Positions 1 through 37,587 are shown, counted from the first letter of the stretch. The stretch is DNA of 64,000 bases from Deltaproteobacteria bacterium (GCA_029261895.1 JAJDAK010000067.1:12541-76540), one strand, 5' to 3'. Notes: generated from the sequence alone by a model not told the origin. Numbers and translations: made by a program.

Positions 1-1
1 C

Positions 2-1567
2 TCATTTCCGCTTCTTCCTGCTCTTCTTTGCGTCCCTCTTGCGCTTTCTATCCTGAAACAGCTGGTTCACGCGAAGCGCAAACGGATAGAGCAAGACAGC
101 GAGTACGCGTGAACCGACCGATCGCGCTTCGGGCGCGGGCGACGCCATATTTCCAAGGCTTTCAACTCCGTCGGCGAAAACATCCGTCGCCGACACTTCG
201 ACGCCATGCGGACGAATGAACGCCTTTACGAAGTCATGAGACTGTCGCGCAGCGACGCTTGGCGCCGCGATGGACTCGCTTAATTGTTTCAAATGCTCGT
301 CGAAGCTTCGCGCGGATCGCAAGAGGCCTCCCGCCACATTCAGCAAGTAGTGAAAATGAAGCGTCCCCTCTTGATTGTCCCAGAATTCTGGCTCAAGGAT
401 CGTATGTACTGGCCGTCCTACAATGCCCGCCTCCAAGAACGCGCTGGTATTGAGCCCCACAACCGCGTGACTATGGTGTAACGATTCAAAATAGTCGCTC
501 CGGGACTCGTCATCGATCGGAACGGAGCCCCAGAGCGAAACATTATCGAATCCCGTGAGGTCGATATCGTTCCACAGGTGCATGCGGGTCGGATGGGGAC
601 GGACGAGAAGTCCTGCGCTCCGTAGTTGGGGAAAGGTTGCCGCGCGAATCCGTTCGATCCACTTGTAAACAAACTCCGCCTCACTCGGGCTCCCCGGAAA
701 GAGCGCGGAACACGCGTAGACTAGAAACGGGCGCTCCGGTCGCAATCCCACCTTCTCGCAGAAAGCCTCTCGGGAAAGTTCCGACCCACGGTCGAACCAG
801 TGGTCAAAACACTGCGCACCGGTCACGACCACCCGTTCGCGTGGCACGCCGTGCAGGTCCATCGCTTCGGTTCTTTGGGTTTCGTTCCAAACAAAGATGC
901 GATCCGGGTGATGGCGTAGTACCGCTTTGCTGGAGAGATGATCCCAGCTTGCCACACAGAGTGCCGTACGCAGACCGAGTGTTTTGGAAGCGCGAAGCAC
1001 CTCGAGCTGAGAGGAGCCCAATGCCAGCAACGGCGTAATGAGAACGAGATCTGGCTTCTCTTGGCGCAGAAACTCCAGCAGTGGAATTTGACTCGGTGCC
1101 GCTCTCTCAATCGTGCGTAAGCTCGCGGACAAGATACGAACCGCCCAGCGAGGGAATCGATTCAGGAACGGCAGCCGTTTCCGCACGAAAGGCGCCAAAC
1201 GTGTTCCGGCCCGACGACGCAGCTGCGGGAAACCCTTGTAGCTCTCATCCGAATAGCGGAAATAGTCGAGCAGACGCCGAATTTCGCGTACAAAGAGGAA
1301 CCAGACGCTCTGCTCAGCCGACGGCGCTTTGCCACAAGTAACCGTGGGAAATTCCCGAGTGAGACGGGCAGCCGTTTCGTAGCCTCCCACGTCCTTAGCG
1401 GTTTCAGGAATGATACGGATGCTATGCCCACGTACGGTAAGTTCTTGGATCACCGTGTCATAGATCCGCAAAGATCCTAGATGCGCGACCGAGAAAAGAA
1501 TCCGCAACGGGCGTGACCGTTGTGCATCGCTCCGAACGGGCGTAGCCTCTGCTTCAAACACTGTCAT
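2..1567 (-). CDS. TagF/KpsC-KpsS-like GT-B family protein, paralog A. C-terminus runs past the window start. Likely start is MTVFEAE, overlapping the stop of the upstream paralog by 4 nt.
   Basis: The N-terminal ~470 aa are collinear with the ORFs at 1564..4125 and 5878..7488. Shared blocks include ITPLL..S..L, SWDhLs.KG, VWNE.Q and RPHP...NTSA..EA.IVG.PV.T. The K/R-rich C-terminal tail continues beyond position 1. Confidence 0.6.
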   Translation of the reverse strand: MTVFEAEATPVRSDAQRSRPLRILFSVAHLGSLRIYDTVIQELTVRGHSIRIIPETAKDVGGYETAARLTREFPTVTCGKAPSAEQSVWFLFVREIRRLLDYFRYSDESYKGFPQLRRRAGTRLAPFVRKRLPFLNRFPRWAVRILSASLRTIERAAPSQIPLLEFLRQEKPDLVLITPLLALGSSQLEVLRASKTLGLRTALCVASWDHLSSKAVLRHHPDRIFVWNETQRTEAMDLHGVPRERVVVTGAQCFDHWFDRGSELSREAFCEKVGLRPERPFLVYACSALFPGSPSEAEFVYKWIERIRAATFPQLRSAGLLVRPHPTRMHLWNDIDLTGFDNVSLWGSVPIDDESRSDYFESLHHSHAVVGLNTSAFLEAGIVGRPVHTILEPEFWDNQEGTLHFHYLLNVAGGLLRSARSFDEHLKQLSESIAAPSVAARQSHDFVKAFIRPHGVEVSATDVFADGVESLGNMASPAPEARSVGSRVLAVLLYPFALRVNQLFQDRKRKRDAKKSRKKRK

Positions 1568-4125
1568 CGCAAGTTCCAGTCGGCCCCAAGGCCCAATCGG
1601 AGGGTATCGAGATCGTCTAGATCCAACGCAATAAACCTCCCCGCTCCTAGGGACTGAAATATATCGCGTGCGAGCGCAAGATGGTCCGCTCGAAAACTTT
1701 GCTGGCCGGAATAAAATGAGACCGTATCGACGCCACAAAGCGGGCCAAGATACGAAAATCCGCCGTAGGTTCCGACCAGAGCCCGCGCGTTGGCAATCAA
1801 CTGCGTCTGTACATCCAGGTTGTTCTGCGGCGTAATGAGGTGGCTAATCGTGTGCAAGCGGTCTCGTTGAGCAGCCGTAAAATCTCCATGGTCATCTACG
1901 CGTAGCCCCGTATCGAGCAGCACAACATCGGTTTCACGGGTCAGATTCTCAAGCAACGCAGAAACAAACTGACGGGTGCGGGGATTATCGGGAAAGGCCG
2001 CGCTGTCATAGAACTTGACCGCCACGTAGGAATCCGGGAGCCCCACTAAATCCTGCGATGTTTCCATCGGAGCAAACATTCGATACGAGCTAAAAGACTC
2101 GATCAGTCTAACCGAGGTTTGTTTGCGCCAAAACAGCCGGAACAAATTGTACATCAGCGAAGGATGCAGCCACTGGCTCTGATTAAGGCTCGACGGTTGA
2201 CCTAGCTGCGCAAGAATTTCACGATCGAATGCGGAAACACTTACGTGCTTAAGGTTGCCACCCTGCTGTGCGGTTCGTTCATCGTTCTTCGTGCGAAAAG
2301 TACCCGGCTCAAACAGCTCGAAGATGTCACGGTAGTTCGGAGATATATCTCGGTACCAATGCGACGGACCACCACGTGACAGCACGATCAGTCGGTCGCC
2401 ACGGATTCCCCCGTACGCTTTGGCCCAGTGGAGAAACGGGATCCAATACAGCAGTTCAAAACCAACTTCGGTAATCCAGGGACCCACAACGATGGGTCGA
2501 TCGCCGTCGCCGAGCGCACGGATAGTGTCCTTGGTGGCCTGTACTTCCGGGAACTGCGCAAGCAGATTCTTGGGACGACGTGTCTTTTTCTCGGTTTTCG
2601 ACGGAACACCGCCGCCTTTGAGCTGTGACTTCCGTGGAACGACGGACTCAAGTCGACGACGCAACGAAGCTACACCACGAAATCCCGCAAAAGCCAACGC
2701 CAACGGAAATCGCAGCAGAACACCCCAAACAGGTACTGGCTCGGGCGGCGGCTTTTCGAGCTGCTCCAGACTTTCGATTGCGTCGGCAAGCAGTGGCGTG
2801 CTTGCATGCGCTAGTCCCTGTGGGCGTACGAACGCTCGAAGAAACTGCTCGCCGGTTTTTATAGCGGCATCGGGGTCTTCAAGCGTACGCGACAACGCGC
2901 GCGTGTGTTCACTGAGCGTCGTGCTCAACTGCACGAAGCCGCCATTTTCGGGTACGAGATAATGAAAGTGAAGTGTTCCCTGCTGCCGTCCCGCGTATTC
3001 AGGAACAGCAATGGTATGAACGGCTTTACCTACGATCGCCGCTTCGATCATCGCACTGGTGTTGATACCGACGACGGCAGCGCTGTGATAGAGCGAATCA
3101 AAATAGTCGTCCTGATCGCGTGCATTGACCGCACTGCTTTGCTCTCTGGGCCAAACTGCAACCGCCTCGAGGTCAGTGAAGTCTGCATTCTCCCACGGTC
3201 CCGTATTATAAGGATGCGGCCGAATCAAGACTGCCAGCTCACGCACGGACGGATCATCACTTCTACGCAACGCTTCGATCCAGCCCCGAACCCATTCGAC
3301 TTCCGCACCACGCCCCGCAATAAATCCGGAAGACGCGACGAAGAGAACATAGCGTCGAGAGGCGGGAAGGCCGGCAGCCTGGCAGAACTCTGCATACGTG
3401 CGACTCGGCTTCCGACCGAACCAAGTATCAAAAAGTGGCGTCCCCGTAATCACCACGTTTGACGCGGCGGTCCCATGAAATTCTACCGCTTCCTGTTTTT
3501 GAAATTCATTCCATACGAAGACGCGCTGCGGTTGAACCCGCAGCAGGCCTTTGTTTGTCAGGTTGTCCCAACTGGGGATGCAAACCCCGGTTCGGATCCC
3601 CAATGCCTTGGCGCTCTTAATGAGATCCACCTGCTCCGATGCTGCCTCGACCAACGGGGTGACAATTACTGCGTCGGGATCTTGGGAACGAATAAATTCG
3701 AGGGTCGCAGCATCGCAGGGGAGTGCGCGCTCCGCCGCGGCCAGGACACTCATGCAAAGCTGCACCAGGGCTTCCGGTAAACGGCGCACCCGCATACGAG
3801 CAGCTGAAGCGCCGAAGACCTTACGGATCATCCGCTCACGAAGTGCGTGGGCATCTACGTAGCGAGGGTGAAAAAATCGTAAAACGTCCATCGCGCCGCG
3901 GATCACTCGAGCGATCGATCCCCAGCGACCTGCCCGACTTGGAACTTTGCCGAGCACCCGAATCGAACCGGTACCACGCGCGAGATGATCCCAGCGAATC
4001 GTCTTGTCTTTCTCCATACGATTGATCGCGAGCGACACCTGATGGCCCCGGCGCGATAGTTCTCGCAACGTGGACTCATAGAAGCGTAGATAGTCGGGAG
4101 AAGCGACCACGACGAGAAGCTTCAT
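1564..4125 (-). CDS. TagF/KpsC-KpsS-like GT-B family protein, paralog B (853 aa), with an extra ~380 aa C-terminal domain of unknown function
   Basis: The N-terminal ~470 aa are homologous to paralogs A and C, sharing the SWDNLTNKG and IRPHPYN..GINTSAMIEAAIVGKAVHTI blocks. It lies 18 nt downstream of the ABC ATPase gene on the same strand. Confidence 0.65.
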   Translation of the reverse strand: MKLLVVVASPDYLRFYESTLRELSRRGHQVSLAINRMEKDKTIRWDHLARGTGSIRVLGKVPSRAGRWGSIARVIRGAMDVLRFFHPRYVDAHALRERMIRKVFGASAARMRVRRLPEALVQLCMSVLAAAERALPCDAATLEFIRSQDPDAVIVTPLVEAASEQVDLIKSAKALGIRTGVCIPSWDNLTNKGLLRVQPQRVFVWNEFQKQEAVEFHGTAASNVVITGTPLFDTWFGRKPSRTYAEFCQAAGLPASRRYVLFVASSGFIAGRGAEVEWVRGWIEALRRSDDPSVRELAVLIRPHPYNTGPWENADFTDLEAVAVWPREQSSAVNARDQDDYFDSLYHSAAVVGINTSAMIEAAIVGKAVHTIAVPEYAGRQQGTLHFHYLVPENGGFVQLSTTLSEHTRALSRTLEDPDAAIKTGEQFLRAFVRPQGLAHASTPLLADAIESLEQLEKPPPEPVPVWGVLLRFPLALAFAGFRGVASLRRRLESVVPRKSQLKGGGVPSKTEKKTRRPKNLLAQFPEVQATKDTIRALGDGDRPIVVGPWITEVGFELLYWIPFLHWAKAYGGIRGDRLIVLSRGGPSHWYRDISPNYRDIFELFEPGTFRTKNDERTAQQGGNLKHVSVSAFDREILAQLGQPSSLNQSQWLHPSLMYNLFRLFWRKQTSVRLIESFSSYRMFAPMETSQDLVGLPDSYVAVKFYDSAAFPDNPRTRQFVSALLENLTRETDVVLLDTGLRVDDHGDFTAAQRDRLHTISHLITPQNNLDVQTQLIANARALVGTYGGFSYLGPLCGVDTVSFYSGQQSFRADHLALARDIFQSLGAGRFIALDLDDLDTLRLGLGADWNLR

Positions 4126-4143
4126 AAACTTGGTATCTCCTGG

Positions 4144-4968
4144 CTAAATGAGATCCACATCATCTTCGTCGACCATGCTCAAATCCGCATCATCATCGCC
4201 ATCATCACTTGCGCCACGAAGCTTGTCGACACAGATGGGCAGCACATCGTCCGGAGGCCCGGCGGCGATCAGCTCACCTTTCTCCAACATGAAAACGCGA
4301 TCGATCTGCTGGGGAAGAATATCAAGATGTGGTGACATAAAAATGACCGTTCGGCCGTTTCGTTTGCGTTCAAGCTCCGCGACAAAGCGCCGCCGAAGCT
4401 CCTGCGATCGTGCGCTGGGCAGCCCATCGATGACGAACACATCGGCGCCCGAATACAAGCCAGCGAGCGCGGTACCGACGGTCAAGCAGTCACGTGGGAG
4501 ATCATGAACTTTCGCCTCCTTCCACTCTTGCCAGCCAAAGGTATCGAGAATCGCCTCACCAGCCGTCCGGCGTTCTCGTAGTGGTACGCCAAAAAGCGCC
4601 ATCGACAGTCTGAGGTGTTCGCTGAATAGAATGAAGCGTTTCGCCCCGAGCTTACTCTTGGGTATGAGTACAGCCTTGCCATAAACGCGGACGTGACCTT
4701 GATCGGGTCGTAGCAGCCCAGCGATCAGTCTAGCCAGCGTACTTTTCCCAGAATTTCGTTCGCCCAGCACCAGGACGACTTCACCGGGCTTGATCGAGAA
4801 ACTCAGGTTTCGGAGCGCAGAGATGCTATTGGGAATGTGCGCCTTCCGACGCTGAATGCCGGGTAAGAGCATATCGAAGAATGCACGGGAACGAGCTTGG
4901 TCGAACGATCCGTAGAAAGCTTTCGATACCTGCTTCGCAACGATCGCGCCGGCGGCCCCTTTAGCCAT
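4144..4968 (-). CDS. KpsT/TagH-like polysaccharide ABC transporter ATP-binding protein with degenerate signature and Walker B motifs
   Basis: Walker A is GERNSGKST and the H-loop is MSPHL. The expected signature SSGM reads PRDC and Walker B reads VFVIDG, with Asp-Gly instead of Asp-Glu. The start is chosen at MAKGAAG so it does not overlap the divergent permease. Confidence 0.6.
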   Translation of the reverse strand: MAKGAAGAIVAKQVSKAFYGSFDQARSRAFFDMLLPGIQRRKAHIPNSISALRNLSFSIKPGEVVLVLGERNSGKSTLARLIAGLLRPDQGHVRVYGKAVLIPKSKLGAKRFILFSEHLRLSMALFGVPLRERRTAGEAILDTFGWQEWKEAKVHDLPRDCLTVGTALAGLYSGADVFVIDGLPSARSQELRRRFVAELERKRNGRTVIFMSPHLDILPQQIDRVFMLEKGELIAAGPPDDVLPICVDKLRGASDDGDDDADLSMVDEDDVDLI

Positions 4969-5057
4969 ACAGCATGCCCTCCAGAAGCTCATCCGGGCTT
5001 AACGCCGGAGGACGGTCACCCCGCACTTCGATCGAGGGTACGGGTTCCCATTTTGGA

Positions 5058-5912
5058 GTGCAAGCACTATGCTCCTCGACCGTGATCGAGATTTTCGTCC
5101 TCGGATGGCAGCTTTTTCTACGCGACTTTCGTACTCGCTACCGCCAAGCCTACCTGGGTTACGTCTGGGCTTTTGCTCGGATTGTTTTGACCGGCGGCCC
5201 CATCATCATGGTAGGAAATCAGTTCGGCTTGGGAGAAGCCGACCCGACGGTCGACTACATTCCGTTTGCGTTCGCCGGCACGTTCTTTTTTCAGGTTTTC
5301 TGGGATGGCCTCGTGATGCCTCAATGGATCGGCCGACGGATGCGCGTCATTATGCGAGATATTCCGATCCCTAGCTCGGCTGTGCTCGTCGCTGCAGCGT
5401 GTTACACGGGGTTTAACTCGTTGCTATCCGGGATCGTCCTAACCGTGTTGCTCGTGGTCTTTGACGCGTCAATCGCAGCCACATTCCCACTCATCCTCGT
5501 GAGCTTCCCGGTGGTCATGCTGGCAGGCATCGCCGTCGGAGCGTTCATTTTACCCGTGACTTTCGTCTATCTCGACATCCGCTACGCGCTGACCTTCATT
5601 GCGCCGGTCGTGATGTTCAGCACACCGATATTCTACGTCTCACCCGAGACCGGATTCCTCGCCACAGTAAACACTTGGAACCCACTCACCTATCTGATCA
5701 ACACGCCGAGGGACTGGCTCTTCGCTGGCTTTACCGGGGACGAGCCCCTCTTCGCAGCCATCATCGTATTCGTCTTCATACTGCTGGCAATCGCGTTGCT
5801 GTTTTTGCGACGCGGACTCCCGATCGCACTCGAGCAACTCATCCGCCCTCAGGGTTCGGGCGAGGATCCAAGTCCGATCAATGATCCTCTGGCTCATCCG
5901 GCGGGTAGATAG
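5058..5912 (+). CDS. ABC-2 type (KpsM/Wzm/TagG-like) polysaccharide export permease. Start is uncertain, GTG at 5058 or 5082.
   Basis: It carries the FLRDFRTRYRQAYLGYVWAF motif typical of ABC-2 Wzm/KpsM permeases, followed by about six hydrophobic segments. The ATG-ORF start at 4974 would overlap the divergent ATPase. Confidence 0.65.
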   Translation: MQALCSSTVIEIFVLGWQLFLRDFRTRYRQAYLGYVWAFARIVLTGGPIIMVGNQFGLGEADPTVDYIPFAFAGTFFFQVFWDGLVMPQWIGRRMRVIMRDIPIPSSAVLVAAACYTGFNSLLSGIVLTVLLVVFDASIAATFPLILVSFPVVMLAGIAVGAFILPVTFVYLDIRYALTFIAPVVMFSTPIFYVSPETGFLATVNTWNPLTYLINTPRDWLFAGFTGDEPLFAAIIVFVFILLAIALLFLRRGLPIALEQLIRPQGSGEDPSPINDPLAHPAGR

Positions 5913-7488
5913 CATTTCGAACCCGATCCCGGAGCTCAACCAACAACGCCCGGGCGCGCTTCCGGACAATGCGAAGGGGCCGCGTGAGTCGACGCTGTAC
6001 GCGGTGAGCATCGACGCCCGCCTTCAACGCGAAGGCGACGTTGGCACCGATCGCCAGCGGAAATAGCAAGGGGATGAGTGCGGGGGTCCACGCGGGTCGC
6101 GGTGAACGCGGTACCGGCTGAAGACTTCCCGTTTCCTCAACGACGTCCGCCATTACTGTAGCCGCCGGTGTATCCAACCCTTGAGGGCGCACATAACCAG
6201 AGACGAAGCGCAGACTCTTCTCGTCGGTCTTTGACTCGGTTGCCAACGCCGAACTCAAGTCGGCAATGTGGCGGTCCATGTCGTGCGAAACATGCAGCAG
6301 CCCGCCGTGAAAATGCAGCAGATGCTGGAAGTGAATCGTCTCGACCTGCGACGCACCTAAATCCTGGCGTAGGAGCGTGAAGACGGGTCGCCCGATGATC
6401 GCGGATTCAATCAAGCCGCTCGTGTTCAACCCGATCACTGCATGACTGTGGTACATGGAGTCGTAGTAGTTCGCGCTCGAGGCTGAGTCGATGGGATTCG
6501 CGCCATGACGCGGCCAAATGCTCACGTTCTCGAAACGACCTAGATCGAATGTCTCCCATTGCGCCGCGTTTTGAGGATGGGGTCGGATCAGGATGCCAAC
6601 CTCGTTCAAATCGATTTTTCCGCAGTCACGCAACGTATGCAGCCACTCATCCACAAATTCCCACTCACGCGGGGCAATGAACATCGATGAAGCAAGGTAG
6701 AGCAAATACGGTCGGTCGCTGCGCAAACCCACTTCGCTACAGAATGCGGCTCGATTCGTACTGGGCTCCGCACCGAACCAACGGTCATAGCCGGGGGCAC
6801 CCGTGAGTTTGATGCGCTCCATGGGAACTTGATGCAGGCGGATCGCCTCTTCACGCTGAATTTCATTCCAAACCGCGACCCGGTCCGGAACTTCGTGAAT
6901 CTGTCCTTTGGTCGTTAGATGATCCCAACTCCCGATGCAGAGCAAGCTGGGCAACCCGCGACGACGAGCCGTGCGTACGAGATCCACCTGTTGTGAGCCG
7001 AAGTACAATAAGGGCGTCGTGATCAATACATCGGGCTTATGCGCCTCAATAAAAGCGTCGACCGCACCACTGATCGGAACCGCGCGCTCCAGCGTCTTCA
7101 ACAACGTACCGATCCAACGTCGACCCGTGGAACCTCGGAAGATACCAAAGCTGAGTACCTTCAGCGTCCAACCGGGCAGATGGGATGCTGCACGCGCGCG
7201 GAGCCGCGGGGTGTCGGCGAAACTCGGTTCTAAATAGCGGAGGTAATCGATACAGAGACGAATCGCGCGAGCCAACGCACGCCACATTCCGCTGCTGTAC
7301 CGCGGCTGATCCACGATGGAAACCGAGGTCAAGTCCAGCGCCAGTCGGTCCGCGATTTGACGCTCGTCGGGCTTGCCTTTGCGCTCCGCAAAAAGCAGCA
7401 CCTCATGGCCGCGTTCCGCTAGCGTGCGAACCGTGGTTTCGAAATTGCGCAGGAAGCCGAAATGGGCGGTGAAGAAGATGATCCTCAT
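5878..7488 (-). CDS. TagF/KpsC-KpsS-like GT-B family protein, paralog C (536 aa)
   Basis: It is collinear with paralogs A and B, sharing ITTPLLYFGSQQVDL, GSWDHLTTKG and IRPHPQN..GLNTSGLIESAIIGRPVFTL. It is convergent with the permease, with a 35-nt overlap. Confidence 0.65.
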   Translation of the reverse strand: MRIIFFTAHFGFLRNFETTVRTLAERGHEVLLFAERKGKPDERQIADRLALDLTSVSIVDQPRYSSGMWRALARAIRLCIDYLRYLEPSFADTPRLRARAASHLPGWTLKVLSFGIFRGSTGRRWIGTLLKTLERAVPISGAVDAFIEAHKPDVLITTPLLYFGSQQVDLVRTARRRGLPSLLCIGSWDHLTTKGQIHEVPDRVAVWNEIQREEAIRLHQVPMERIKLTGAPGYDRWFGAEPSTNRAAFCSEVGLRSDRPYLLYLASSMFIAPREWEFVDEWLHTLRDCGKIDLNEVGILIRPHPQNAAQWETFDLGRFENVSIWPRHGANPIDSASSANYYDSMYHSHAVIGLNTSGLIESAIIGRPVFTLLRQDLGASQVETIHFQHLLHFHGGLLHVSHDMDRHIADLSSALATESKTDEKSLRFVSGYVRPQGLDTPAATVMADVVEETGSLQPVPRSPRPAWTPALIPLLFPLAIGANVAFALKAGVDAHRVQRRLTRPLRIVRKRARALLVELRDRVRNAIYPPDEPEDH

Positions 7489-7658
7489 CGCTCGAGAGCA
7501 ACCCCTCGATCCACGAGCCCTGTTGGTAATCTCGGGTTCAATTCAATCCCCCTCTGGGAACAGCACGGTAGGGGTACCGCTTAAAGGGATCAAGTCGAAA
7601 ACGCGCAAGTTGGACTCATCCGCAGACGCCAGCCGATCGGGCCACTATACTTCTCGCC

Positions 7659-8573: not shown

Positions 8574-8593
8574 TCAACAGAGCAGGGCCTGCT

Positions 8594-10513: not shown

Positions 10514-10526
10514 CTTCGCGCTGCTC

Positions 10527-11507: not shown

Positions 11508-11519
11508 AAACCTTTCGCA

Positions 11520-12398: not shown

Positions 12399-12554
12399 GC
12401 AACCACCAAGGGAGGAGGATTCGCTGACACTATACTGGAGCGGCCGACAAAATCACCGTTGCACACAGCCGTGTCGGCCATCCTTGACAGAGCTCCCTCG
12501 ACGGGCTGGAATACGCGCTTCCGACGGTGAAGACGGTCGGAGGCGGGGGGGAGT

Positions 12555-14604: not shown

Positions 14605-14672
14605 AGGGATTTTTCTCGTTCGTCGACAGGATTTCGGTACTCTTCGAACGAATCCGGGGGGAGGGTTGGACG

Positions 14673-15722
14673 ATGGCTCGTGAGCTCACGATCGGTGGCT
14701 TTCGTATCGACGACGACAGCGACTGTTTCATCATTGCCGAGGTAGGACACAATCACCAAGGCGATATCGAGAAATGCAAAGAACTCTTCCTAGCCGCCAA
14801 GGAATGTGGTTGCCACGCGGTTAAGCTTCAAAAACGAAGCAACCGCACGCTCTTCACCCGCGATATGTATGAGAGCGCGTATGACAACGAAAACAGCTAC
14901 GGCGACACCTACGGTAGCCATCGAGAAGCACTCGAATTTGGCTGGGACGAGTATCAGGAGCTGAAGCGTTATTGCGCGGAGATCCAGATCATCTTCTTCG
15001 CCACGGCATTTGACTTCGAAAGCGCCGATTTTCTGATGAAGCTCGACGTTCCCGCATTCAAGATCGCATCCGGTGACCTCACGAATCTCCCGCTGATCAA
15101 GTACGTGGCGGGATTCGGTCGCCCAGTAGTGATGAGTACCGGCGGCGGCACGATGGAGGACGTTCAACGCGCCTATGACGCGGCCATGCCAATCAACCCG
15201 CAGATCACCATTTTGCAATGTACCGCGGGCTATCCGCCGGATTTTGACCAACTCAATCTGCGCACGATCGAGACTTTTCGAGAGGCCTTCCCCAATATTG
15301 TGATCGGTCTCTCGGCGCATGACAGCGGGATCGCGATGGCACCCGCGGCTTATGTGCTCGGCGCACGAATCCTCGAAAAGCACTTCACCTTGAATCGCGC
15401 CTGGAAGGGCACCGACCATGCGTTCTCCTTGGAACGACCGGGAATGCGGCGCTTGGTTCGAGACCTTCAGCGCACACGAATCGCCCTCGGTGACGGCCAG
15501 AAGCGCCAATACCCGACGGAGAAAAAGCCCTTATTCAAGATGGCAAAGAAACTTGTCGCGGCGCGTGATCTCGCGGTTGGACACCAGCTTACGCGCGAGG
15601 ACATTGCAATTCGTTCCCCGAACGACGGACTTCCCCCGTACGAACTCGAAAACGTCATCGGCAAAGTGCTGAAGCGTTCACTCACGACCGACGAGAATCT
15701 CGGTCATGAGGATTTAGAATAA
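14673..15722 (+). CDS. NeuB-family nonulosonic/sialic acid synthase (PEP-condensing, NeuB/PseI/LegI-like)
   Basis: IIAEVGHNHQGDIEKCKELFLAAKECGCHAVKLQKRS is compared with NeuB IIAEIGCNHNG..A..AGADAVKFQ. The start is taken at MARELTIGG, preceded by GGGGGAGGG. The ORF-track start at 14400 would overlap the previous gene. Confidence 0.75.
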   Translation: MARELTIGGFRIDDDSDCFIIAEVGHNHQGDIEKCKELFLAAKECGCHAVKLQKRSNRTLFTRDMYESAYDNENSYGDTYGSHREALEFGWDEYQELKRYCAEIQIIFFATAFDFESADFLMKLDVPAFKIASGDLTNLPLIKYVAGFGRPVVMSTGGGTMEDVQRAYDAAMPINPQITILQCTAGYPPDFDQLNLRTIETFREAFPNIVIGLSAHDSGIAMAPAAYVLGARILEKHFTLNRAWKGTDHAFSLERPGMRRLVRDLQRTRIALGDGQKRQYPTEKKPLFKMAKKLVAARDLAVGHQLTREDIAIRSPNDGLPPYELENVIGKVLKRSLTTDENLGHEDLE

Positions 15723-15745
15723 CGGGCGAAGCCGAGCGAGGCTTC

Positions 15746-16564
15746 ATGAACGACAATCTATTCAGTCTTCGCGGCCGACCCATCGTGATCACCGGTGGTC
15801 TGGGACAGCTAGGGCTGCAATTCACGAAAACGCTGTTGGAGCGCGGCGCACGCGTCGCGATTTTTGACCTCGAAGTCGAGGACGATCGGATAAAAACCGC
15901 GCTCGGGCACCGCCCCTCCGAGAGCGAATTGCTAACGCTGAGCGTTGACGTCACCAAACGTATCTCGATCGAGCGCGCACTCGACCAAGTGCGCAAGCAT
16001 TGGTATACCCCGCTGGGGCTGGTGAACAACGCCGCATTGGACTCGCCCCCGGGCGCGGGCGCTGCTGAAAACGGTCCTTTTGAAAATTACCCCGAGAATT
16101 CTTGGGACCGCGTGATGGAGGTCAACACCAAAGGCGTGTTCCTCTGCTCCCAAGTGATTGGCGGCGCGATGGCGGAAGCCGGGCGGGGATCCATCGTCAG
16201 CATCGCGTCCATCTATGGCTTGGTCTCACCAGACCAGAGTCTCTATGAGTATCGACGCCAGCGCGGGGAAGAGTTCTATAAGCCCGCCGCATACGCGGCA
16301 TCGAAATCCGCTCTGCTCAATTTGACGCGATACATGGCGACCTACTGGGCGCCACGAGGCGTCCGCGCCAACACATTGACTCTCGGGGGTGTGTTCAATG
16401 ATCAAGACGAAGAATTCCTGGAGCGCTATCACGCTCGCGTCCCACTCGGACGCATGGCTCAGCCAGAGGACTACAACGGCGCGCTGGTCTTTCTGCTATC
16501 CGACGCGTCTTCGTATATGACCGGTTCAAATCTCATCATCGACGGTGGCTGGACCGCTTGGTAA
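15746..16564 (+). CDS. Short-chain dehydrogenase/reductase (SDR)
   Basis: ITGGLGQLGLQF is the TGxxxGxG motif. NNAA and the Y-x3-K motif YAASKSAL are present. Confidence 0.75.
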   Translation: MNDNLFSLRGRPIVITGGLGQLGLQFTKTLLERGARVAIFDLEVEDDRIKTALGHRPSESELLTLSVDVTKRISIERALDQVRKHWYTPLGLVNNAALDSPPGAGAAENGPFENYPENSWDRVMEVNTKGVFLCSQVIGGAMAEAGRGSIVSIASIYGLVSPDQSLYEYRRQRGEEFYKPAAYAASKSALLNLTRYMATYWAPRGVRANTLTLGGVFNDQDEEFLERYHARVPLGRMAQPEDYNGALVFLLSDASSYMTGSNLIIDGGWTAW

Positions 16565-18045
16565 GGAACACGATGCCTGAATTGCCTTTCCCGCAAGAAA
16601 TTCCCAATTGGATCGAAGGGAAGGAAACGTCCGCCCTTTCCGGCGAGCGGCTGGATAAGTTTTCGCCTGCCGACGGACGCTTGCTTTGCCGCCTCACAGC
16701 GTCGAACGCCCAGGACGTCGAAGTCGCCATCGCTGCCGCACGTGCGGCGGCACCCAGTTGGGCACAAACCTCGGCCGTCACGCGCGGTCAGATCCTACAC
16801 AATATCGTGATGGGCCTTGAGAAAGAACGCGAAGCCGTGGCCCGGACGGTCGCCCTGGAAACAGGAAAGTCGATCAGCGAGGCCCAAGGCGAAACCGGCG
16901 CTGCCATCGCGCAAGGACTCTTCATGTCGGGGGAAGGCCAACGACTCTTCGGCCGGACCATCCCCAGCGGAGGGGTAAATCGGATTCAAATGACCGTACG
17001 CCAACCACGCGGTGTTGCGGGATTGATCATCGCGGCCAACACGCCGATCGCGAACGTGGCTTGGAAAGTCTTTCCGGCATTAATTTGCGGCAATACCGCG
17101 GTGCTCAAAGCGGCCGAAGACACACCCGCGACCGCATGGCTTTTTGCAAAGATCGCGCATGAGGCCGGGTTACCGGCCGGTGTCTTGAATGTAATTCAAG
17201 GAAGTGGCCCCGCGGCAGGTGCTCCATTGGTCGCGCATGCCGACGTGGATGTCGTGAGCTTCACCGGGTCCACCGCTGTGGGCCGTCAGATCGCACGCAT
17301 CGCGGGTAAAAGACTTGCTCATGTCTCGTTGGAACTCGGTGGCAAAAACCCATTGGTGGTCTGCGATGATGCCGATCTTGAAAACGCGGTGCGCTGGGCC
17401 GCACTATCTGCATTTAGCAACGCGGGGCAACGCTGCGCTGCTGGAAGTCGTCTGATTGTTTTCGACGAAGTTTACGCAGCGTTTCGTGACGCACTCGTGA
17501 CGCACACGCAAACGCTGCGGGTAGGCTCCGCCGAAGGCGATGATCTCGGACCCGTGATCAACGAGGGCCAGCTTGGCAAAATGCTTTACGCGATCCGTAT
17601 CGCTAAGTCCGAAGGTGCCAAAGTGATCCTTGGTGGCCATCGAATTACCAATGACGCACGCGCGGCGGGTTACTACATGACACCGACCCTGGTCGAAAAC
17701 GTTAAACCCGACGGCAAGCTATCCACGTTGGAAATTTTCGGCCCGATCGCTGTTCTCTATCGCGTAGCCAATCTAGATGAAGCGTTGGCGTTGGCGAATA
17801 ACTCTCCGTACGGCCTTACCGCATCGATTCATACCAAGAATATCGACCGTGCGCTTCGCTTCGCGCAACATGTCGAAGCTGGAGTCGCGATGGTGAACGC
17901 CGGCACCTACGGTAGCGAGCCCCATATGCCCTTTGGGGGCCGAAAACAATCGGGGAATGGCACACGCGAGCCGGGCACCGAAGCACTCGACGTCTATTCC
18001 GAACTCAAGAACATCTGCATCAATTTCAACCCGGAGGCCAATTAG
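16558..18045 (+). CDS. NAD(P)-dependent aldehyde dehydrogenase
   Basis: LELGGKNP and FSNAGQRCAAGSR carry the catalytic Cys and Glu motifs of the ALDH family. Confidence 0.8.
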   Translation: MVRNTMPELPFPQEIPNWIEGKETSALSGERLDKFSPADGRLLCRLTASNAQDVEVAIAAARAAAPSWAQTSAVTRGQILHNIVMGLEKEREAVARTVALETGKSISEAQGETGAAIAQGLFMSGEGQRLFGRTIPSGGVNRIQMTVRQPRGVAGLIIAANTPIANVAWKVFPALICGNTAVLKAAEDTPATAWLFAKIAHEAGLPAGVLNVIQGSGPAAGAPLVAHADVDVVSFTGSTAVGRQIARIAGKRLAHVSLELGGKNPLVVCDDADLENAVRWAALSAFSNAGQRCAAGSRLIVFDEVYAAFRDALVTHTQTLRVGSAEGDDLGPVINEGQLGKMLYAIRIAKSEGAKVILGGHRITNDARAAGYYMTPTLVENVKPDGKLSTLEIFGPIAVLYRVANLDEALALANNSPYGLTASIHTKNIDRALRFAQHVEAGVAMVNAGTYGSEPHMPFGGRKQSGNGTREPGTEALDVYSELKNICINFNPEAN

Positions 18046-18046
18046 A

Positions 18047-18808
18047 TTGGCACGAGCGGTCGCGCTGATACCTGCACGTTCGGGCTCAGAGCGCGTTCCG
18101 GACAAGAATATCCGCAAGCTCGGCGAGCATCCGCTAATCGCATATTCAATTGCAGCCGCACATGAGAGCAAAGTCTTCGACGCTGTTGTGGTTTCAACAG
18201 ACTCAAGTGCGTATGCCGAGGTTGCCAAATACTATGGCGCCGAGGTGCCTTTTCTGAGACCGTCTGAACTCGCGGGATCTCGTTCGCCCGACATCGAATG
18301 GGTCGAGCATATGCTCCGCTGTCTCGAATCAAGTGGTCGCGACTTCGATTGCTTCAGCATCCTGCGACCCACGAGTCCATTTCGTCGTGCGGAGACCATC
18401 CACAGGGCGTGGCAGCAATTCCTAGCGTTAGATGGAATCGACTCGATTCGTGCCGTCGAATTATGCAAACAACACCCGGGCAAAATGTGGCTCGTTCGTG
18501 GCGACAATATGGCACCGTTACTTCCATCTCCGGCCGACCCACCCTGGCATAGCTCGCAGTATCCCTCGCTGCCCGAGGTTCATGTACAGAACGCGAGTCT
18601 TGAAATCGCATGGTCGCGCGTCGTGCAACAGGGCCGCAGCATTGCCGGCGAGCGACTGGCGCCGTTCTTTACCAAGGATTTCGAAGGGTTCGATGTGAAC
18701 GATGAGGCCGATTGGTTTCACGCCGAGCGACTGCTCGCCGACGGAAGCGCGAGTCTTCCCCCCATACCTCAGACCCCTTATCCCAAGGAAATCCCGTGTC
18801 GGAACTGA
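18047..18808 (+). CDS. NeuA-like CMP-nonulosonic acid synthetase (acylneuraminate cytidylyltransferase family)
   Basis: ALIPARSGSERVPDKNIRKLGEHPLIAYSI is compared with NeuA AIIPARGGSKGIPRKNI..L.GKPLIAHTI. It starts with TTG 1 nt after the ALDH stop, with GGAGG upstream. Confidence 0.7.
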   Translation: MARAVALIPARSGSERVPDKNIRKLGEHPLIAYSIAAAHESKVFDAVVVSTDSSAYAEVAKYYGAEVPFLRPSELAGSRSPDIEWVEHMLRCLESSGRDFDCFSILRPTSPFRRAETIHRAWQQFLALDGIDSIRAVELCKQHPGKMWLVRGDNMAPLLPSPADPPWHSSQYPSLPEVHVQNASLEIAWSRVVQQGRSIAGERLAPFFTKDFEGFDVNDEADWFHAERLLADGSASLPPIPQTPYPKEIPCRN

Positions 18809-20685
18809 TCTACATTCCTGAAGACGAACTAAAGCGTGTGCGAGAACTCGGCAATAACACGGTGGATCGCACGGCGATCTTTGCCGATGTCTGCCGCATC
18901 AACACACTCTATATGATCGCGAATGCAGGCTCGGGGCATATCGGCAGCAGCTTCAGCAGCCTCGACATCGTTTCCCATCTGTTATTGAACGAAATGGATC
19001 CTGACCGCGACGTCTATTTCTCATCGAAGGGTCATGACGCACCCGGTTATTACGCAGCACTGATTGGCGCGGGCCAGCTCGAGTTCGAGTTGGTGCATCA
19101 GCTACGGCGGCTTGGCGGCTTACCCGGCCATCCGGATGTCTCCACACCTAATGTCGAGGCCAACACCGGCTCGCTCGGTATGGGAATTTCCAAAGCAAAG
19201 GGCATGGCGCTGGCCAACCGTGCGCACGGAAAACCCGGACAGACCTTCGTGATGACCGGGGATGGCGAACTTCAAGAAGGCCAGCTCTGGGAATCCTTAG
19301 CATCGGCCGCAAACCAGCAGATCGGTGAAATCACTGCGATTGTCGATCACAACAAGCTCCAATCCGATACCTACGTTTCTCACGTAAGCGACCTGGGCGA
19401 TCTCGAAGCGAAGTTTGCAAGTTTTGGCTGGGCAGTTGCGCGCTGCAACGGACATGACTTCCTTGCGCTCGCGGAAACTTTGCATTCGCTACGCGACGAT
19501 CCGCGTCCGGGCGTACTGATTGCCGATACGATCAAGGGACGCGGCGTTTCCTTTATGGAGCACCCGCGCTTCAAACCCGACGAACTCTACGCCTTCCACA
19601 GTGGCGCACCGAGCGTGGAGCATTATGAGAAAGCGCTTGCGGAGCTTTTGGATCGCACGAATGAACGCTTGTCCAATCTTGGGCTTGCGTCCCTGAACAC
19701 GCGGAGCCATGCGAGACCCAAGGCTCTCGCAGCCAAGCCCACTCAGAAATTGGTTGCCGCGTACGGCCGCGCGCTGGTTGAGCAGGGTCGACGGAACTCC
19801 GAACTGGTTGTACTCGACGGGGATTTGGTACTCGATACCGGATTGATTCCGTTTCGCGATGCCTTTCCCGACCGATTCTTTGAATGCGGCATCGCCGAAC
19901 AGGACATGGTCTCCCAAGCGAGTGGGATGGCGCTCAAAGGTTGGCTGCCCGCGGTGCATAGCTTTGCGTGTTTTCTGGCCGCGCGTCCCAACGAGCAGAT
20001 CTACAACGCGGCGACCGAAGGTCGCAAGATTCTCTACGTGGGTTCATTGGCTGGATTGCTGCCGGGAGGACCGGGGCATTCCCATCAGTCTGTACGCGAT
20101 ATTGCTGCACTCGCCGCGATGCCGGGTTTGATTCTGATTGAACCCGCGACCGAACGAGAAGTCGCCGCCGCGCTGGAATTCGCGCTGAATCAAACCGACG
20201 AAAGCGTTTACCTTCGACTCGTCACGGTACCCGTTGAAGTGTCGTTCGAGGTTCCCGACCTGCCACTCAAACTTGGCCACGGTCACTTGGTTCGAGATGG
20301 TAATGATGCGCTGCTGATCAGTTCGGGTCCGGTGATGCTCCGTGAAGCTATGCTTGCCGCAGAGAAGCTGCGAGACCAGTACGCGATCTCCCTGCGCATC
20401 ATGGATCTGCCCTGGCTGAATCGCATCGATGCCGATTGGCTCACAGAACAAACCCAAGGGTTCAAGCGTGTATTTACACTCGATAATCACTATTGGCTGG
20501 GCGGGCAGGGTCAATTGATCGCAAGCACGCTGGCCACAGCGGGAATCGGTGCAGGCCAACGCGTCGTTCCGTTTGCTGTGGAGAACGTGCCCGCATGTGG
20601 TACGGCGGATGAAGTCCTCCACGCGCATGGGCTGGACGCCGTGAGTCTTACCTCACGCATCGCGTCCGAACTCGGCGCTGCATGA
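18796..20685 (+). CDS. Transketolase-like TPP-dependent enzyme with the N-terminal TPP domain and the pyrimidine/C-terminal domains fused
   Basis: SGHIGSSFSSLDIV...KGHDAPGYYAALI matches the transketolase N domain. GIAEQDMVSQASGMALKG matches the pyrimidine-binding domain. It likely starts with GTG overlapping the NeuA-like stop. Confidence 0.65.
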   Translation: MSELIYIPEDELKRVRELGNNTVDRTAIFADVCRINTLYMIANAGSGHIGSSFSSLDIVSHLLLNEMDPDRDVYFSSKGHDAPGYYAALIGAGQLEFELVHQLRRLGGLPGHPDVSTPNVEANTGSLGMGISKAKGMALANRAHGKPGQTFVMTGDGELQEGQLWESLASAANQQIGEITAIVDHNKLQSDTYVSHVSDLGDLEAKFASFGWAVARCNGHDFLALAETLHSLRDDPRPGVLIADTIKGRGVSFMEHPRFKPDELYAFHSGAPSVEHYEKALAELLDRTNERLSNLGLASLNTRSHARPKALAAKPTQKLVAAYGRALVEQGRRNSELVVLDGDLVLDTGLIPFRDAFPDRFFECGIAEQDMVSQASGMALKGWLPAVHSFACFLAARPNEQIYNAATEGRKILYVGSLAGLLPGGPGHSHQSVRDIAALAAMPGLILIEPATEREVAAALEFALNQTDESVYLRLVTVPVEVSFEVPDLPLKLGHGHLVRDGNDALLISSGPVMLREAMLAAEKLRDQYAISLRIMDLPWLNRIDADWLTEQTQGFKRVFTLDNHYWLGGQGQLIASTLATAGIGAGQRVVPFAVENVPACGTADEVLHAHGLDAVSLTSRIASELGAA

Positions 20686-22391
20686 ATCAGCTCTTTCGCA
20701 ACTACCTCAAACAGGCGGGGTGGTTCCGTCCGGCTCGACTCATGCGTCATCATCGTCAACAGCGACAAGGTCATCCGGATTGGACACGGATTCTCGACCG
20801 TGACCGTTCGGAATGGGAGGCCGCCCTGGAGCGGTCACGTAGCGGACCCAAGGTGTTGATCGCGACCAGTTTTGGCGGGCATCTCGCCGTAACACCCGTG
20901 GAGAGTATGCTCGCCGTCGCACTCACATTACGGGGTGCGCGCCCGGAAATCCTACTCTGCGATTCCGCTCTGCCAGCCTGCATGGCATGCGAAGTCAGTT
21001 GGTACCCGAATCAAGAAGCGTTTCTTGAGTTCGGACCCAAACCAGATCTTTGCAAAGAATGTTTCAAGCCTGCACATCACATGTATCAGGGCGCGGGGTT
21101 TCGCGTACACCGCTACAGCGATTGGTTGGCTACAGCCGACCACACGCGTGCCGAGGAAATTCTCGATGAAACGCCCTACGCATCGATTCCCGCTTTGGTG
21201 GTCGATGGAATTGCGGTCGGCGAGCACGCCATGGCGGGCACCTTGCGCTTTTTCGCACGCGGCACGCTCGACGCCGAGCAACACGCCGAAAGTGTTTTAC
21301 GGCGCTATCTGCATGCGGCACTGTTGACAACGTTTTCGACACAGCATCTTTTGGCAGATCACCCATTCGAAACGGCAGTTTTCCATCACGGGATCTACGT
21401 GCCACAGGGATTGATCGGAGAGGTCGCGAGAAAATTCCACACGCGAGTCGTAAACTGGCATCCCGCATACCGCAAGAAGAGTTTCCTCTTCAGTCACGGC
21501 GACACCTACCACCAGACATTGCTGCATGAACCCACCAGTGAGTGGGAAAACATGGAATGGAACGCAGAGCTCGAGTCGGAGACCCTACGGTACCTCGAGA
21601 GCCGCTGGACCGGGCACGAGGACTGGATCTGGTTTCATGAGAACCCAAGCTTTGATCTGGATGAATTGACGCAAGACATTGGCGTAGATTTACAACGCCC
21701 CTGCATCGGCCTGATGACCAACGTGGCTTGGGACGCTCAGCTGCACTACGACGCCAACGCCTTCCCGGATATGTTGAGCTGGTTGTTTGCAACCATCGAA
21801 CATTTCCGCGGTCGACCGGAACTGCAGCTGATCATTCGTGTGCATCCGGCGGAGTTGCGAGGAGCATTACCGTCGCGTCAAAAGGTCGTCGATGAACTCC
21901 GCGGGGCATTCCCGACATTACCATCGAATGTATTCGTCATCGGACCGGAGAGTCGGCTGAGCACCTATGCCGTCATGGCGCGTTGCGACTCGATCCTCAT
22001 CTACGGCACCAAGGCGGGGATCGAACTCACAAGCTTGGGCGTACCCGTGATCACCGCGGGCGAAGCTTTCATTCGTAACAAGGGCATCACGTTGGACGCC
22101 AAGTCGAGCGAGGACTATTTCGAACTGCTGCAGAAGCTACCGCTCGGGGAACGCCTGGTTGACGCCGAGTTGGAACGCGCACGGAAGTACGCGTTTCACT
22201 TTTTCTTCCGGCGCATGATCCCATTGGAGTTCATGGAGCCCACGGGGGCGTATCCGCCATACCGTATCGCCACCGATAGCATCGAGCCATTCTTGCCCGG
22301 ACGCAGTCGCGGCCTCGACATCATCTGCGACGGCATTTTGAAGGGCACGAGCTTCGTCTACCCGGCAGAGGAACTACTCCGCGGCGTTTAA
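20682..22391 (+). CDS. KpsS/KpsC (Capsule_synth)/TagF-like GT-B protein, paralog D (569 aa)
   Basis: The C-terminal half reads LIIRVHPAELRG...STYAVMARCDSILIYGTKAGIELTSLGVPVI. It resembles the KpsS HHP...AVVTINSTAGISAL block and the R.HP...NTSA blocks of paralogs A to C. Confidence 0.55.
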   Translation: MNQLFRNYLKQAGWFRPARLMRHHRQQRQGHPDWTRILDRDRSEWEAALERSRSGPKVLIATSFGGHLAVTPVESMLAVALTLRGARPEILLCDSALPACMACEVSWYPNQEAFLEFGPKPDLCKECFKPAHHMYQGAGFRVHRYSDWLATADHTRAEEILDETPYASIPALVVDGIAVGEHAMAGTLRFFARGTLDAEQHAESVLRRYLHAALLTTFSTQHLLADHPFETAVFHHGIYVPQGLIGEVARKFHTRVVNWHPAYRKKSFLFSHGDTYHQTLLHEPTSEWENMEWNAELESETLRYLESRWTGHEDWIWFHENPSFDLDELTQDIGVDLQRPCIGLMTNVAWDAQLHYDANAFPDMLSWLFATIEHFRGRPELQLIIRVHPAELRGALPSRQKVVDELRGAFPTLPSNVFVIGPESRLSTYAVMARCDSILIYGTKAGIELTSLGVPVITAGEAFIRNKGITLDAKSSEDYFELLQKLPLGERLVDAELERARKYAFHFFFRRMIPLEFMEPTGAYPPYRIATDSIEPFLPGRSRGLDIICDGILKGTSFVYPAEELLRGV

Positions 22392-22780: not shown

Positions 22781-25079
<2,299 letters not shown>

Positions 25080-30468: not shown

Positions 30469-30507
30469 CCACCCCCCGATGGCTCCAATGTCGGGAGTTT
30501 ACATGAA

Positions 30508-30523
30508 TGTTCCACGTGAAAGG
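30508..30523. promoter_or_regulatory. parS-like site 1 upstream of parA
   Basis: TGTTCCACGTGAAAGG compared with the consensus TGTTTCACGTGAAACA, 3 mismatches. Confidence 0.4.
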
Positions 30524-30547
30524 AGCAGAACCTTTCGTCATTTGATG

Positions 30548-30563
30548 TGTTCCACGCGAAACT
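30548..30563. promoter_or_regulatory. parS-like site 2 upstream of parA
   Basis: TGTTCCACGCGAAACT compared with the parS consensus, 3 mismatches. It lies 40 bp from site 1. Confidence 0.35.
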
Positions 30564-34039: not shown

Positions 34040-34051
34040 GTTCAGGGCTCC

Positions 34052-34602: not shown

Positions 34603-34617
34603 GGATTAGACCGAACG

Positions 34618-37586: not shown

Positions 37587-37587
37587 G

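Follow-up and report, generated by a model that had tools for sequence, protein, structure and literature searches.

What glycan is assembled by a locus whose core proteins have almost no functional names? The question is raised by positions 1-22391 of a stretch of 64,000 nucleotides (nt) of DNA from a Deltaproteobacteria bacterium (GCA_029261895.1 JAJDAK010000067.1:12541-76540); the whole stretch is referred to as the window. Four core protein families of this locus, called A1 to A4 here, have hundreds to thousands of members, essentially no assignment in Pfam, NCBIfam or the PDB and almost no functional names in the databases consulted, and they reside in conserved clusters of abundant, mostly uncultured soil and water bacteria.

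The reading that we favour, if only slightly, is that of a composite cell-surface glycan assembly locus, in which two modules, widespread and conserved yet unstudied, are combined with tailoring enzymes and a sugar of the ulosonic acid class, activated with cytidine monophosphate (CMP), would be added by the KpsC-like protein A3. A preliminary description of this DNA had already taken positions 1-22391 for a glycan assembly locus that is free of housekeeping genes and might make a product other than the known ones. The GT-B glycosyltransferases with an R-x-HP motif bear out the first point. The listing of open reading frames (ORFs) together with hidden Markov model scans bears out the second, with polysaccharide-type genes only at positions 1-22391 and ATP synthase genes from 22781 onward, and the third is supported as well.

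A conserved cassette and its predicted product

The plus-strand operon at 12555-22391 (module 1) encodes the following proteins.

12555-13658, plus strand: fusion of a cytidylyl/adenylyl-transferase-like domain (residues 1-140; PF01467, 53.8 bits) with an S-adenosylmethionine (SAM) methyltransferase (Methyltransf_11, 57 bits)
13660-14604, plus strand: A4, conserved protein of unassigned fold, adjoining cytidylyltransferase-methyltransferase genes
14673-15722, plus strand: NeuB-family ulosonic acid synthase with SAF domain (PF03102, 256 bits; SAF, 38 bits)
15746-16564, plus strand: short-chain dehydrogenase (SDR), KduD / gluconate-5-dehydrogenase-like (adh_short_C2, 151 bits)
16558-18045, plus strand: aldehyde dehydrogenase (ALDH), alpha-ketoglutarate-semialdehyde-dehydrogenase-like (PF00171, Aldedh, 504 bits)
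18047-18808, plus strand: CMP-ulosonic acid synthetase of the NeuA/PseF/KdsB family (PF02348, CTP_transf_3, 79.8 bits)
18796-20685, plus strand: single-chain 'short' transketolase-like thiamine diphosphate enzyme (three transketolase domains)
20682-22391, plus strand: A3, distant KpsC/KpsS-like (retaining ulosonic-acid transferase-like) GT-B protein with a four-cysteine cluster (weak PF05159)

The five enzymes between A4 and A3 had been named in the preliminary description, and the domain matches above agree with it for the NeuB-like synthase and the NeuA-like CMP-synthetase as well as for the transketolase, aldehyde dehydrogenase and short-chain dehydrogenase. Both domains expected of a nonulosonic acid synthase, PF03102 and SAF, are found in the NeuB-family protein, whose nearest PDB entries are SpsE, NeuB and PseI. 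Its scores against the NeuB/PseI equivalog models (281 bits for TIGR03569 with a cut-off of 399.65, and 240 with a cut-off of 340) stay below threshold, so that the protein is assigned to the family and not to a substrate. The CMP-synthetase likewise reaches 127.6 of the 205.7 bits set for PseF (TIGR03584), and is 67% identical to its homolog in a Chloroflexota locus (L073). All NCBIfam equivalogs are below cut-off for the ALDH; the nearest annotated NCBIfam relatives of the SDR and the ALDH act on 2-keto-3-deoxy sugar acids. The transketolase-like enzyme is closest in the PDB to human-type and split transketolases, followed by DXS. It had also been stated that no aminotransferase or dehydratase gene of the pseudaminic acid (Pse) or legionaminic acid (Leg) type lies beside NeuB, and none does. 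Judged from these families, the likeliest product of the cassette is a 3-deoxy-2-ulosonic acid that is non-amino, CMP-activated and probably oxidized.

Most of the consecutive stop-start junctions hold as first described (15722/15746, 16564/16558, 18045/18047, 18808/18796 and 20685/20682). The exception is 13658/13630: the gene called at 13630 has a likelier start at GTG 13660, which gives a 314-residue database protein (P0128) at 100% identity. NeuB starts at ATG 14673, with a G-rich ribosome-binding site ahead of it and 68 nt between it and the stop of the gene before. Synteny across many genomes confirms that the plus-strand block, with its tight junctions, can be regarded as one operon.

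Synteny, which gave the firmest result of the analysis, was followed in two scans, one of genomes anchored on A1, the family of minus-strand paralogs described below (76 loci), and one of metagenomes anchored on A3 (the 80 closest relatives, at 49-60% identity, many of them on short contigs). Among the 80 A3 loci, the transketolase was found in 41, the CMP-synthetase in 30, ALDH in 21, NeuB in 20, SDR in 18 and A4 in 7. Among 26 A3 loci whose upstream sequence reaches 8 kb or more, 12 have all five biosynthetic genes there on the same strand, and the transketolase ends no more than 1 kb upstream of A3 in half of the loci with at least 2.2 kb (21 of 42). NeuB-SDR-ALDH-CMP-synthetase-transketolase-A3 is thus conserved as a cassette, collinear in many loci from metagenomes and often preceded by A4 and by cytidylyltransferase and methyltransferase genes; at least four phyla have parts of it.

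The plus-strand gene order of the window is also kept, as partial runs, in the A1-anchored loci. In a Nitrospinota locus (L046) and a Vicinamibacterales locus (L065) the run begins with the cytidylyltransferase and A4 and goes on through NeuB, SDR and ALDH until the locus ends. A Thermoleophilaceae locus (L074) has the cytidylyltransferase-methyltransferase and A4 and, on the opposite strand, NeuB and SDR. The Chloroflexota locus L073 has SDR, CMP-synthetase and transketolase, and parts of the cassette are present in five other Acidobacteriota loci. The genes of the minus-strand module are rare around A3 (A1 in 3 and A2 in 2 of the 80 loci), which indicates that the cassette and the A1/A2 module are independent of each other. 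The neighbourhood comparison that had been suggested for this locus therefore returned a recurrent cassette order and two separable modules, and the window locus joins both of them.

The transketolase and A3 genes overlap in the window, unlike 15 A3 loci in which they are separated by a gap of about 680-830 nt (L126, L136, L137, L140-L142, L145, L146, L151, L156, L158-L161 and L163). The gap may hold a small extra gene.

A3 and the retaining ulosonic acid transferases

The preliminary description had counted four paralogs of one family resembling KpsS/KpsC. By BLASTP there are three, the A1 copies. The product of 20682-22391 has no BLASTP relative in A1 and belongs to a distinct family, A3 (4492 cluster representatives), whose link to A1 is weak and shows only when profiles are compared (hhalign probability 51%, E 1.6e-4, RVHP opposite RPHP). 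The resemblance to KpsS/KpsC stands, weakly, for A3 and falls for A1.

The window A3 protein matches PF05159 (Capsule_synth) with E 0.015 and 15.2 bits, for a cut-off of 20. Among 38 A3 relatives, 29 match this family at E of 1 or less, the best of them at 1.3e-7, and the A3 profile finds KpsC in the PDB (6mgd, E 0.033). A (K/R)XHP motif is present, with R386 and H388 each conserved in 37 of the 38 sequences and P389 in all of them. An N-x-x-W-D element (N347 in 34 of 38, W350, D351 in 37 of 38) precedes the HP motif by 37 residues. KpsC, WbbB and KrkA carry at the corresponding place a QXXXD motif with the Asp nucleophile (PMC10148158, PMC12887879), and in KrkA the spacing from Asp193 to H-P is about 34 (PMC12887879); it is by this spacing that we match the A3 element to QXXXD. 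Covalent adducts have been seen for KpsC D160C, WbbB and KrkA D193C. From these similarities we infer that A3 is related, at great distance, to the retaining ulosonic acid transferases of KpsC/KpsS/WbbB type.

The N-terminal domain of A3 contains four conserved cysteines (C93, C100, C124 and C127, within residues 93-127), which by their pattern likely form a metal-binding cluster. We know of no such cysteine cluster in KpsC.

The A1/A2 module and its transporter

Module 2 lies at the left end of the window.

2-1567, minus strand: A1 paralog 3, about 521 residues, GT-B transferase-like with an R-P-H-P motif (BLASTP, 37-39% identity to the other two copies)
1567-2640, minus strand: A2 domain, the C-terminal 358 residues of an 853-residue protein, heptosyltransferase-like GT-B resembling glycosyltransferase family 9 (GT9)
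2641-4125, minus strand: A1 paralog 2, the N-terminal 495 residues of the same 853-residue protein, 1564-4125 (BLASTP)
4144-4992, minus strand: nucleotide-binding protein of the ATP-binding cassette (ABC) type with degenerate catalytic motifs (PF00005, 47.8 bits, profile positions 1-104 of 137)
5058-5912, plus strand: ABC-2 (Wzm/TagG/KpsM-like) permease, the ORF opening at 4974 (hydrophobic segments, N-terminal motif)
5878-7488, minus strand: A1 paralog 1, 536 residues, the modelled member

The three A1 copies are mutually 36-39% identical (BLASTP, E 1e-99 to 1e-120). The ATG of paralog 3 at 1567 overlaps the upstream stop (ATGA), and its gene ends at the window edge. A1 has a hydrophobic helix C-terminal to the catalytic domain; in paralog 2 a hydrophobic segment occupies residues 464-482. 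A1 belongs to no Pfam family, and a profile of 35 members found no match in the PDB, TagF and TarL included. The sole NCBIfam match is marginal, to the BFO_1060 family (29 bits for a cut-off of 200), whose members are genetically proven transferases of Pse/Leg derivatives in Tannerella (PMC5420450). The AlphaFold model of paralog 1 is confident (pLDDT 90.5). The structure prediction and comparison proposed for the paralogs upheld a GT-B fold, with UDP-GlcNAc 2-epimerases and generic GT4/GT1 enzymes as the top neighbours.

R302-P-H304-P305 is invariant in A1. (K/R)XHP has been described as a CMP-binding motif of sialyltransferases and retaining Kdo (the D-manno form of 3-deoxyoct-2-ulosonic acid) transferases (PMC12887879), a set that A1 would extend. 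An S187-W-D-H-L-T-T-K-G stretch is almost invariant. A1 has no acidic residue at the position of the Asp nucleophile of the retaining Kdo transferases, nor does it have the D/E-D/E-G motif that accompanies the HP motif in the bacterial sialyltransferases of families GT38, GT52 and GT80.

For A2 there are at least 1931 homologs, and none of the 120 listed has a Pfam domain. Its model has a pLDDT of 88.7. Matches to the GT9 Pfam family, PF01075, are weak and occur in 4 of 37 relatives, and the A2 profile found nothing in the PDB.

The A1 loci come mostly from Vicinamibacterales and other Acidobacteriota, and also from Planctomycetota, Nitrospinota, Chloroflexota and Actinomycetota, with about four A1 copies per locus. 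When only the 47 A1 loci with full 10-kb flanks are considered, A2 is present in 41, an ABC ATPase in 33 and a CTP_transf_3-like or PF01467-like gene in 25. The precomputed Pfam labels of sampled A1 loci include ABC_tran and ABC2_membrane, often with Epimerase_2, CTP_transf_3, Formyl_trans_N and Polysacc_deac_1 as well. A1, A2 and an ABC transporter make up a multi-copy module, found mainly in Vicinamibacterales.

The pairing of an ABC-2 permease with an ATPase, as first described, holds for the pair, and less well for the ATPase itself. The nucleotide-binding protein keeps Walker A (GERNSGKST) and the H-loop His, and it matches ABC_tran over positions 1-104 of 137 only. It has LPRDC at the signature site and VFVIDG at Walker B, where canonical relatives have SSGM and LLADE. 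The window protein shares with its six closest relatives the loss of the signature (SSGM to PRDC or EKGD) and of the Walker B Glu (DE to DG); relatives further away keep the canonical motifs. The full motif set of an ABC nucleotide-binding domain is accordingly not found in 4144-4992, no second ATPase gene is seen near it, and the export ATPase looks catalytically degenerate. How export would be energised with such a partner of the permease is a question that the locus itself poses. Degenerate relatives were seen in L040, L038, L050, L030, L049 and L044; in the last two of these the domain is joined to a GT9-like A2 domain in one protein.

The permease has five hydrophobic segments, the ABC-2 topology of PF01061 being six helices, and an N-terminal ABC-2-type motif, LRDFRTRYRQAYLGY. 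It has no Pfam match. A weak full-length NCBIfam match to Wzm (E 0.035) and distant phmmer links to permease-like ORFs with a shared N-terminal motif (L054 and L060) were obtained, and its relatives adjoin the nucleotide-binding gene in L044, L049, L050 and L055.

Accessory and tailoring genes

The fusion of a PF01467 cytidylyltransferase domain with a methyltransferase was confirmed, and its assignment to TagD was not. The domain scores 31.3 bits with the TagD model (TIGR01518, cut-off 165.4) and 69.6 bits with domain II of HldE (rfaE_dom_II, cut-off 181.5), higher yet also below cut-off, and it is placed in the PF01467 superfamily only. The reasoning that led from TagD to a CDP-polyol donor is thus not established. 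PDB matches at about 1e-6 are to TagD, ECT and the cytidylyltransferase domain of Fom1. The two halves are separate genes in L025 and L065, and the fusion recurs in L164-L166.

A4 has 715 homologs, one of which bears the NCBI name 'glycosyltransferase family 4'. No Pfam or PDB profile match was found for it, and an hhalign comparison with A1 was negative. It stands beside a cytidylyltransferase domain in all eight loci long enough for both. In L164-L166 the fusion/A4 pair occurs away from NeuB, beside Sulfotransfer_1/3, MBOAT, ankyrin-like and Methyltransf_21 genes, a company that suggests sulfated and acylated glycans in those organisms. The fusion and A4 constitute a separable sub-module that probably handles a second small building block.

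Five further genes separate the two modules.

7659-8573, plus strand: SAM-dependent methyltransferase (Methyltransf_11, E 6e-13)
8594-9535, plus strand: unannotated protein, candidate 2-oxoglutarate (2OG)/Fe(II) oxygenase from the motif PHMD...LTHLLYL...H
9515-10513, minus strand: SAM-dependent methyltransferase (Methyltransf_23, E 3.5e-14)
10527-11507, minus strand: orphan protein (no family match)
11520-12398, minus strand: PhyH-like 2OG/Fe(II) dioxygenase candidate (PF05721, E 0.0023, 18.7 bits, cut-off 22)

With the C-terminal half of 12555-13658, the domains at 7659-8573 and 9515-10513 make up the three methyltransferases that had been counted. The PhyH-like gene stands as to its motif residues, an H-C-D and a distal His being visible in the sequence, and falls short as to its score; relatives at 40-44% identity occur in nine A1 loci. 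The protein at 8594-9535, which has relatives in five A1 loci, has no Pfam, NCBIfam or PDB match and may show the pattern of a prolyl-hydroxylase-type 2OG/Fe(II) oxygenase, in which case the locus may encode two hydroxylases. The 'sulfotransferase-like' label of 10527-11507 found no support: no match was found in Pfam (E up to 10), NCBIfam or the PDB, and no relative in about 166 loci.

Genomic setting

To the right of the locus, atpD, atpG and atpA begin at 22781 and are followed by parAB, yidC, dnaA (34979), dnaN, gyrB and gyrA. The chromosome in the window has a GC content of about 57%, and the cumulative GC skew has its minimum near 34-36 kb. dnaA (34979-36292) and dnaN (36480-37586) lie at this minimum (window 34000-37600), which places a chromosomal replication origin inside the window and makes the glycan locus its neighbour. 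A gene for a methyl-accepting chemotaxis protein (38099-39265) lies between dnaN and gyrB. The ParA homolog (29691-30863, minus strand) is 390 residues long with its ATPase domain only from residue 134, which points either to about 130 extra residues at the N-terminus or to an overcalled ORF start. In a collection of 15 billion proteins, not even AtpD, DnaA, DnaN or GyrB has a relative at 90% identity; the host lineage is poorly sampled. A mobile island was considered and dropped: the locus does not differ in GC content from the rest of the window, there is no RNA gene at the Rfam gathering score anywhere in the window, and no integrase was seen among the ORFs searched. The locus meets the left edge of the window and is possibly incomplete.

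A proposed pathway and its alternatives

How could these genes work together? In module 1, the NeuB-type synthase would condense phosphoenolpyruvate with a non-amino aldose. The SDR and the ALDH would then modify the sugar; our preferred guess is that a terminal CH2OH is taken through the aldehyde to the carboxylate, giving a ulosaric-type acid. The gene order (synthase, SDR, ALDH, CMP-synthetase) and the 2-keto-3-deoxy relatives suggest that the free sugar is oxidized before it is activated. The transketolase-like enzyme may supply or remodel the carbon skeleton, and the NeuA/PseF/KdsB-type enzyme would make the CMP-sugar. A3, the last gene, would attach it in a role like that of KpsS/C or WbbB, whether as a linker at the reducing end, as a cap that terminates the chain or as a branch. 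The cytidylyltransferase-methyltransferase and A4 would probably activate, methylate and transfer or release a second building block. In module 2, the three presumably membrane-anchored A1 proteins, with their CMP-binding-type R-P-H-P and the W-D-H of their N-terminal domain, and A2 would build the polymer at the cytoplasmic face, the ABC-2 permease with its unusual nucleotide-binding partner would export it, and methyltransferases and 2OG-type oxygenases would decorate it.

Gene identities at the family or fold level, paralogy, motifs and synteny are observed directly. Several points weigh against the composite locus that we favour. No substrate or product is established, and the substrates throughout, the sequence of steps, what A3 does and how the polymer is exported are deduced; the roles given to the SDR, the ALDH and the transketolase come from chemical reasoning alone. 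A3 in the window stays below the PF05159 gathering score and has NxxxD, not the invariant QXXXD. The closest structural neighbours of A1 are not CMP-dependent transferases, and half of the A1 loci have no cytidylyltransferase within 10 kb. A nucleotide-binding protein that has lost the signature and the catalytic Glu makes ATP-driven export by the pair doubtful. No initiating enzyme of the WecA/WbaP type, no ligase and no outer-membrane export gene is seen in the window.

The locus might instead make a teichoic-acid-like polymer, in which A1 proteins are TagF/TarL-type phosphotransferases that polymerise a polyol-phosphate or sugar-phosphate using a CDP-donor from the PF01467 domain and the ulosonic acid is a minor decoration. 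The W-(D)-H of A1 and a second His about 115 residues further on do recall the catalytic histidine pair of TagF/TarL (PMC10901376). However, A1 has SWDHLTTKG, not the TWHGTPLK verified around H444 in the TagF PDB sequence; the register is off by one residue, and a gapless comparison places the TagF catalytic His opposite Asp189 and not His190. PF04464 matches one of 35 A1 members at E 0.05, neither TagF nor TarL appeared in the PDB profile search, and the TagF-like assignment first given to A1 was not upheld. A cytidylyltransferase domain occurs in 14 of 83 A1 loci, and in the window it scores higher as HldE domain II than as TagD. We consider a teichoic-like polymer unlikely.

A capsule of group 2 type, with A3 as KpsS/KpsC building a ulosonic-acid linker on lipid, A1 and A2 extending it and a KpsMT-like transporter with KpsE/KpsD exporting it, strikes us as slightly less probable still. 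It would account for the similarity of A3 to PF05159 and KpsC and for the ABC-2 permease and nucleotide-binding protein, and export genes could lie beyond the window edge that cuts the locus. Yet A3 keeps company with the sugar cassette, not with A1 or the transporter, a pattern that fits a cap or branch transferase such as that of the WbbB beta-Kdo cap at least equally well, and A3 is a lone single-module protein, not a KpsS with a dual-module KpsC. No KpsE/KpsD/Wza/Wzz-type gene was found by Pfam among the locus genes or in ten of the larger ORFs from 28-61 kb, an absence left unproven by a locus that runs off the left edge, and none is seen among the precomputed Pfam labels of the related loci that were sampled. 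The label 'capsule-type' in the preliminary description is therefore unsupported, with no KpsD/KpsE/Wza-type gene among the ORFs searched. Glycosylation of an S-layer protein, flagellin or other surface protein with the ulosonic acid and other sugars, by BFO_1060- or Maf-type enzymes, we hold to be improbable. The only named sequence relative of A1 is indeed the BFO_1060 Pse/Leg family, which acts on a Tannerella protein O-glycan (PMC5420450), and chemotaxis genes in the window mean that the organism may be flagellated; but the match falls far short of the cut-off, polymer assembly is what ABC-2 transporters and transferases in several copies typically serve, and no oligosaccharyltransferase, flagellin or S-layer gene adjoins the locus. 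It is more improbable still that A1 proteins are nucleotide-sugar 2-epimerases or hydrolases (NeuC/PseG-like) that supply precursors and are not transferases, as their epimerase neighbours might suggest; GT4/GT1 enzymes stand among the same neighbours, and R-P-H-P is of the CMP-binding type.

The composite assembly locus with a CMP-ulosonic acid thus remains our choice. ABC-transporter-dependent glycan assembly with a CMP-ulosonic acid is already known; here the enzyme families that would carry it out are unassigned in Pfam, NCBIfam and the PDB. In the literature no characterised precedent was found for NeuB with a transketolase or for bacterial heptulosaric acid biosynthesis. A bolder proposal, which we put forward tentatively and think rather doubtful as a whole, is that A4-NeuB-SDR-ALDH-CMP-synthetase-transketolase-A3 makes and transfers an undescribed class of ulosonic acid (a dicarboxylic, ulosaric 3-deoxy-2-ulosonic acid or a transketolase-remodelled one) through a new retaining KpsC-like family of CAZy rank, that A1, A2 and A4 are further new transferase families, and that all of them together would make a surface polymer widespread among soil and marine bacteria that are uncultured, Vicinamibacterales and others; its exporter might be an ABC-2 system whose nucleotide-binding subunit is non-hydrolytic. 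The cassette offers a testable entry to a new CMP-activated acidic sugar and to a new branch of the retaining ulosonic-acid transferases, which are mechanistically unusual, and the locus is a promising place to look for new sugar chemistry and glycosyltransferase families, not a known capsule locus.

Comparison with known systems

The closest counterparts of A3 are KpsC/KpsS (GT107), WbbB (GT99), the Pse transferase KpsS1 of A. baumannii (GT118) and KrkA (GT140), with which it shares a weak but consistent PF05159 similarity and (K/R)XHP. A conserved Asp about 37 residues upstream of that motif, where the C-terminal domain begins, is counted among the resemblances by its spacing, and so is the genetic coupling of A3 to a CMP-ulosonic acid synthetase. 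It differs from the four families in its N-x-x-W-D, in the added four-cysteine cluster and in a coupled synthase of the NeuB type rather than the KdsA type. For A1, the score with BFO_1060 is far below that family's cut-off; the other group compared with it is the TagF-like family (TagF, TarL and Cps3D), which is characterised by five active-site motifs and, within a GT-B fold, by two critical histidines, a Trp-His base and one in contact with the phosphate. For A2, the GT9 heptosyltransferases WaaC, WaaF and TibC are among the closest known systems.

With assembly by Wzm/Wzt, TagGH and KpsMT, where chain ends may be capped by beta-Kdo or methyl(phosphate), the locus has in common a permease paired with a nucleotide-binding partner, a number of transferases on the cytoplasmic side, methyltransferases and a potentially capping, Kdo-transferase-like enzyme. 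In contrast to those systems, relatives of its nucleotide-binding protein are fused to a GT9-like domain and not to a carbohydrate-binding module. The pathways of sialic, pseudaminic and legionaminic acids and of Kdn (2-keto-3-deoxynononic acid) share with the cassette a NeuB synthase with SAF domain followed by a CTP_transf_3 CMP-synthetase. Whereas these pathways use NeuC, PseB/C/H/G, an aminotransferase or an acetyltransferase, the window cassette has none of them; its equivalog scores are all below cut-off, and a conserved SDR, ALDH and transketolase stand in their place.

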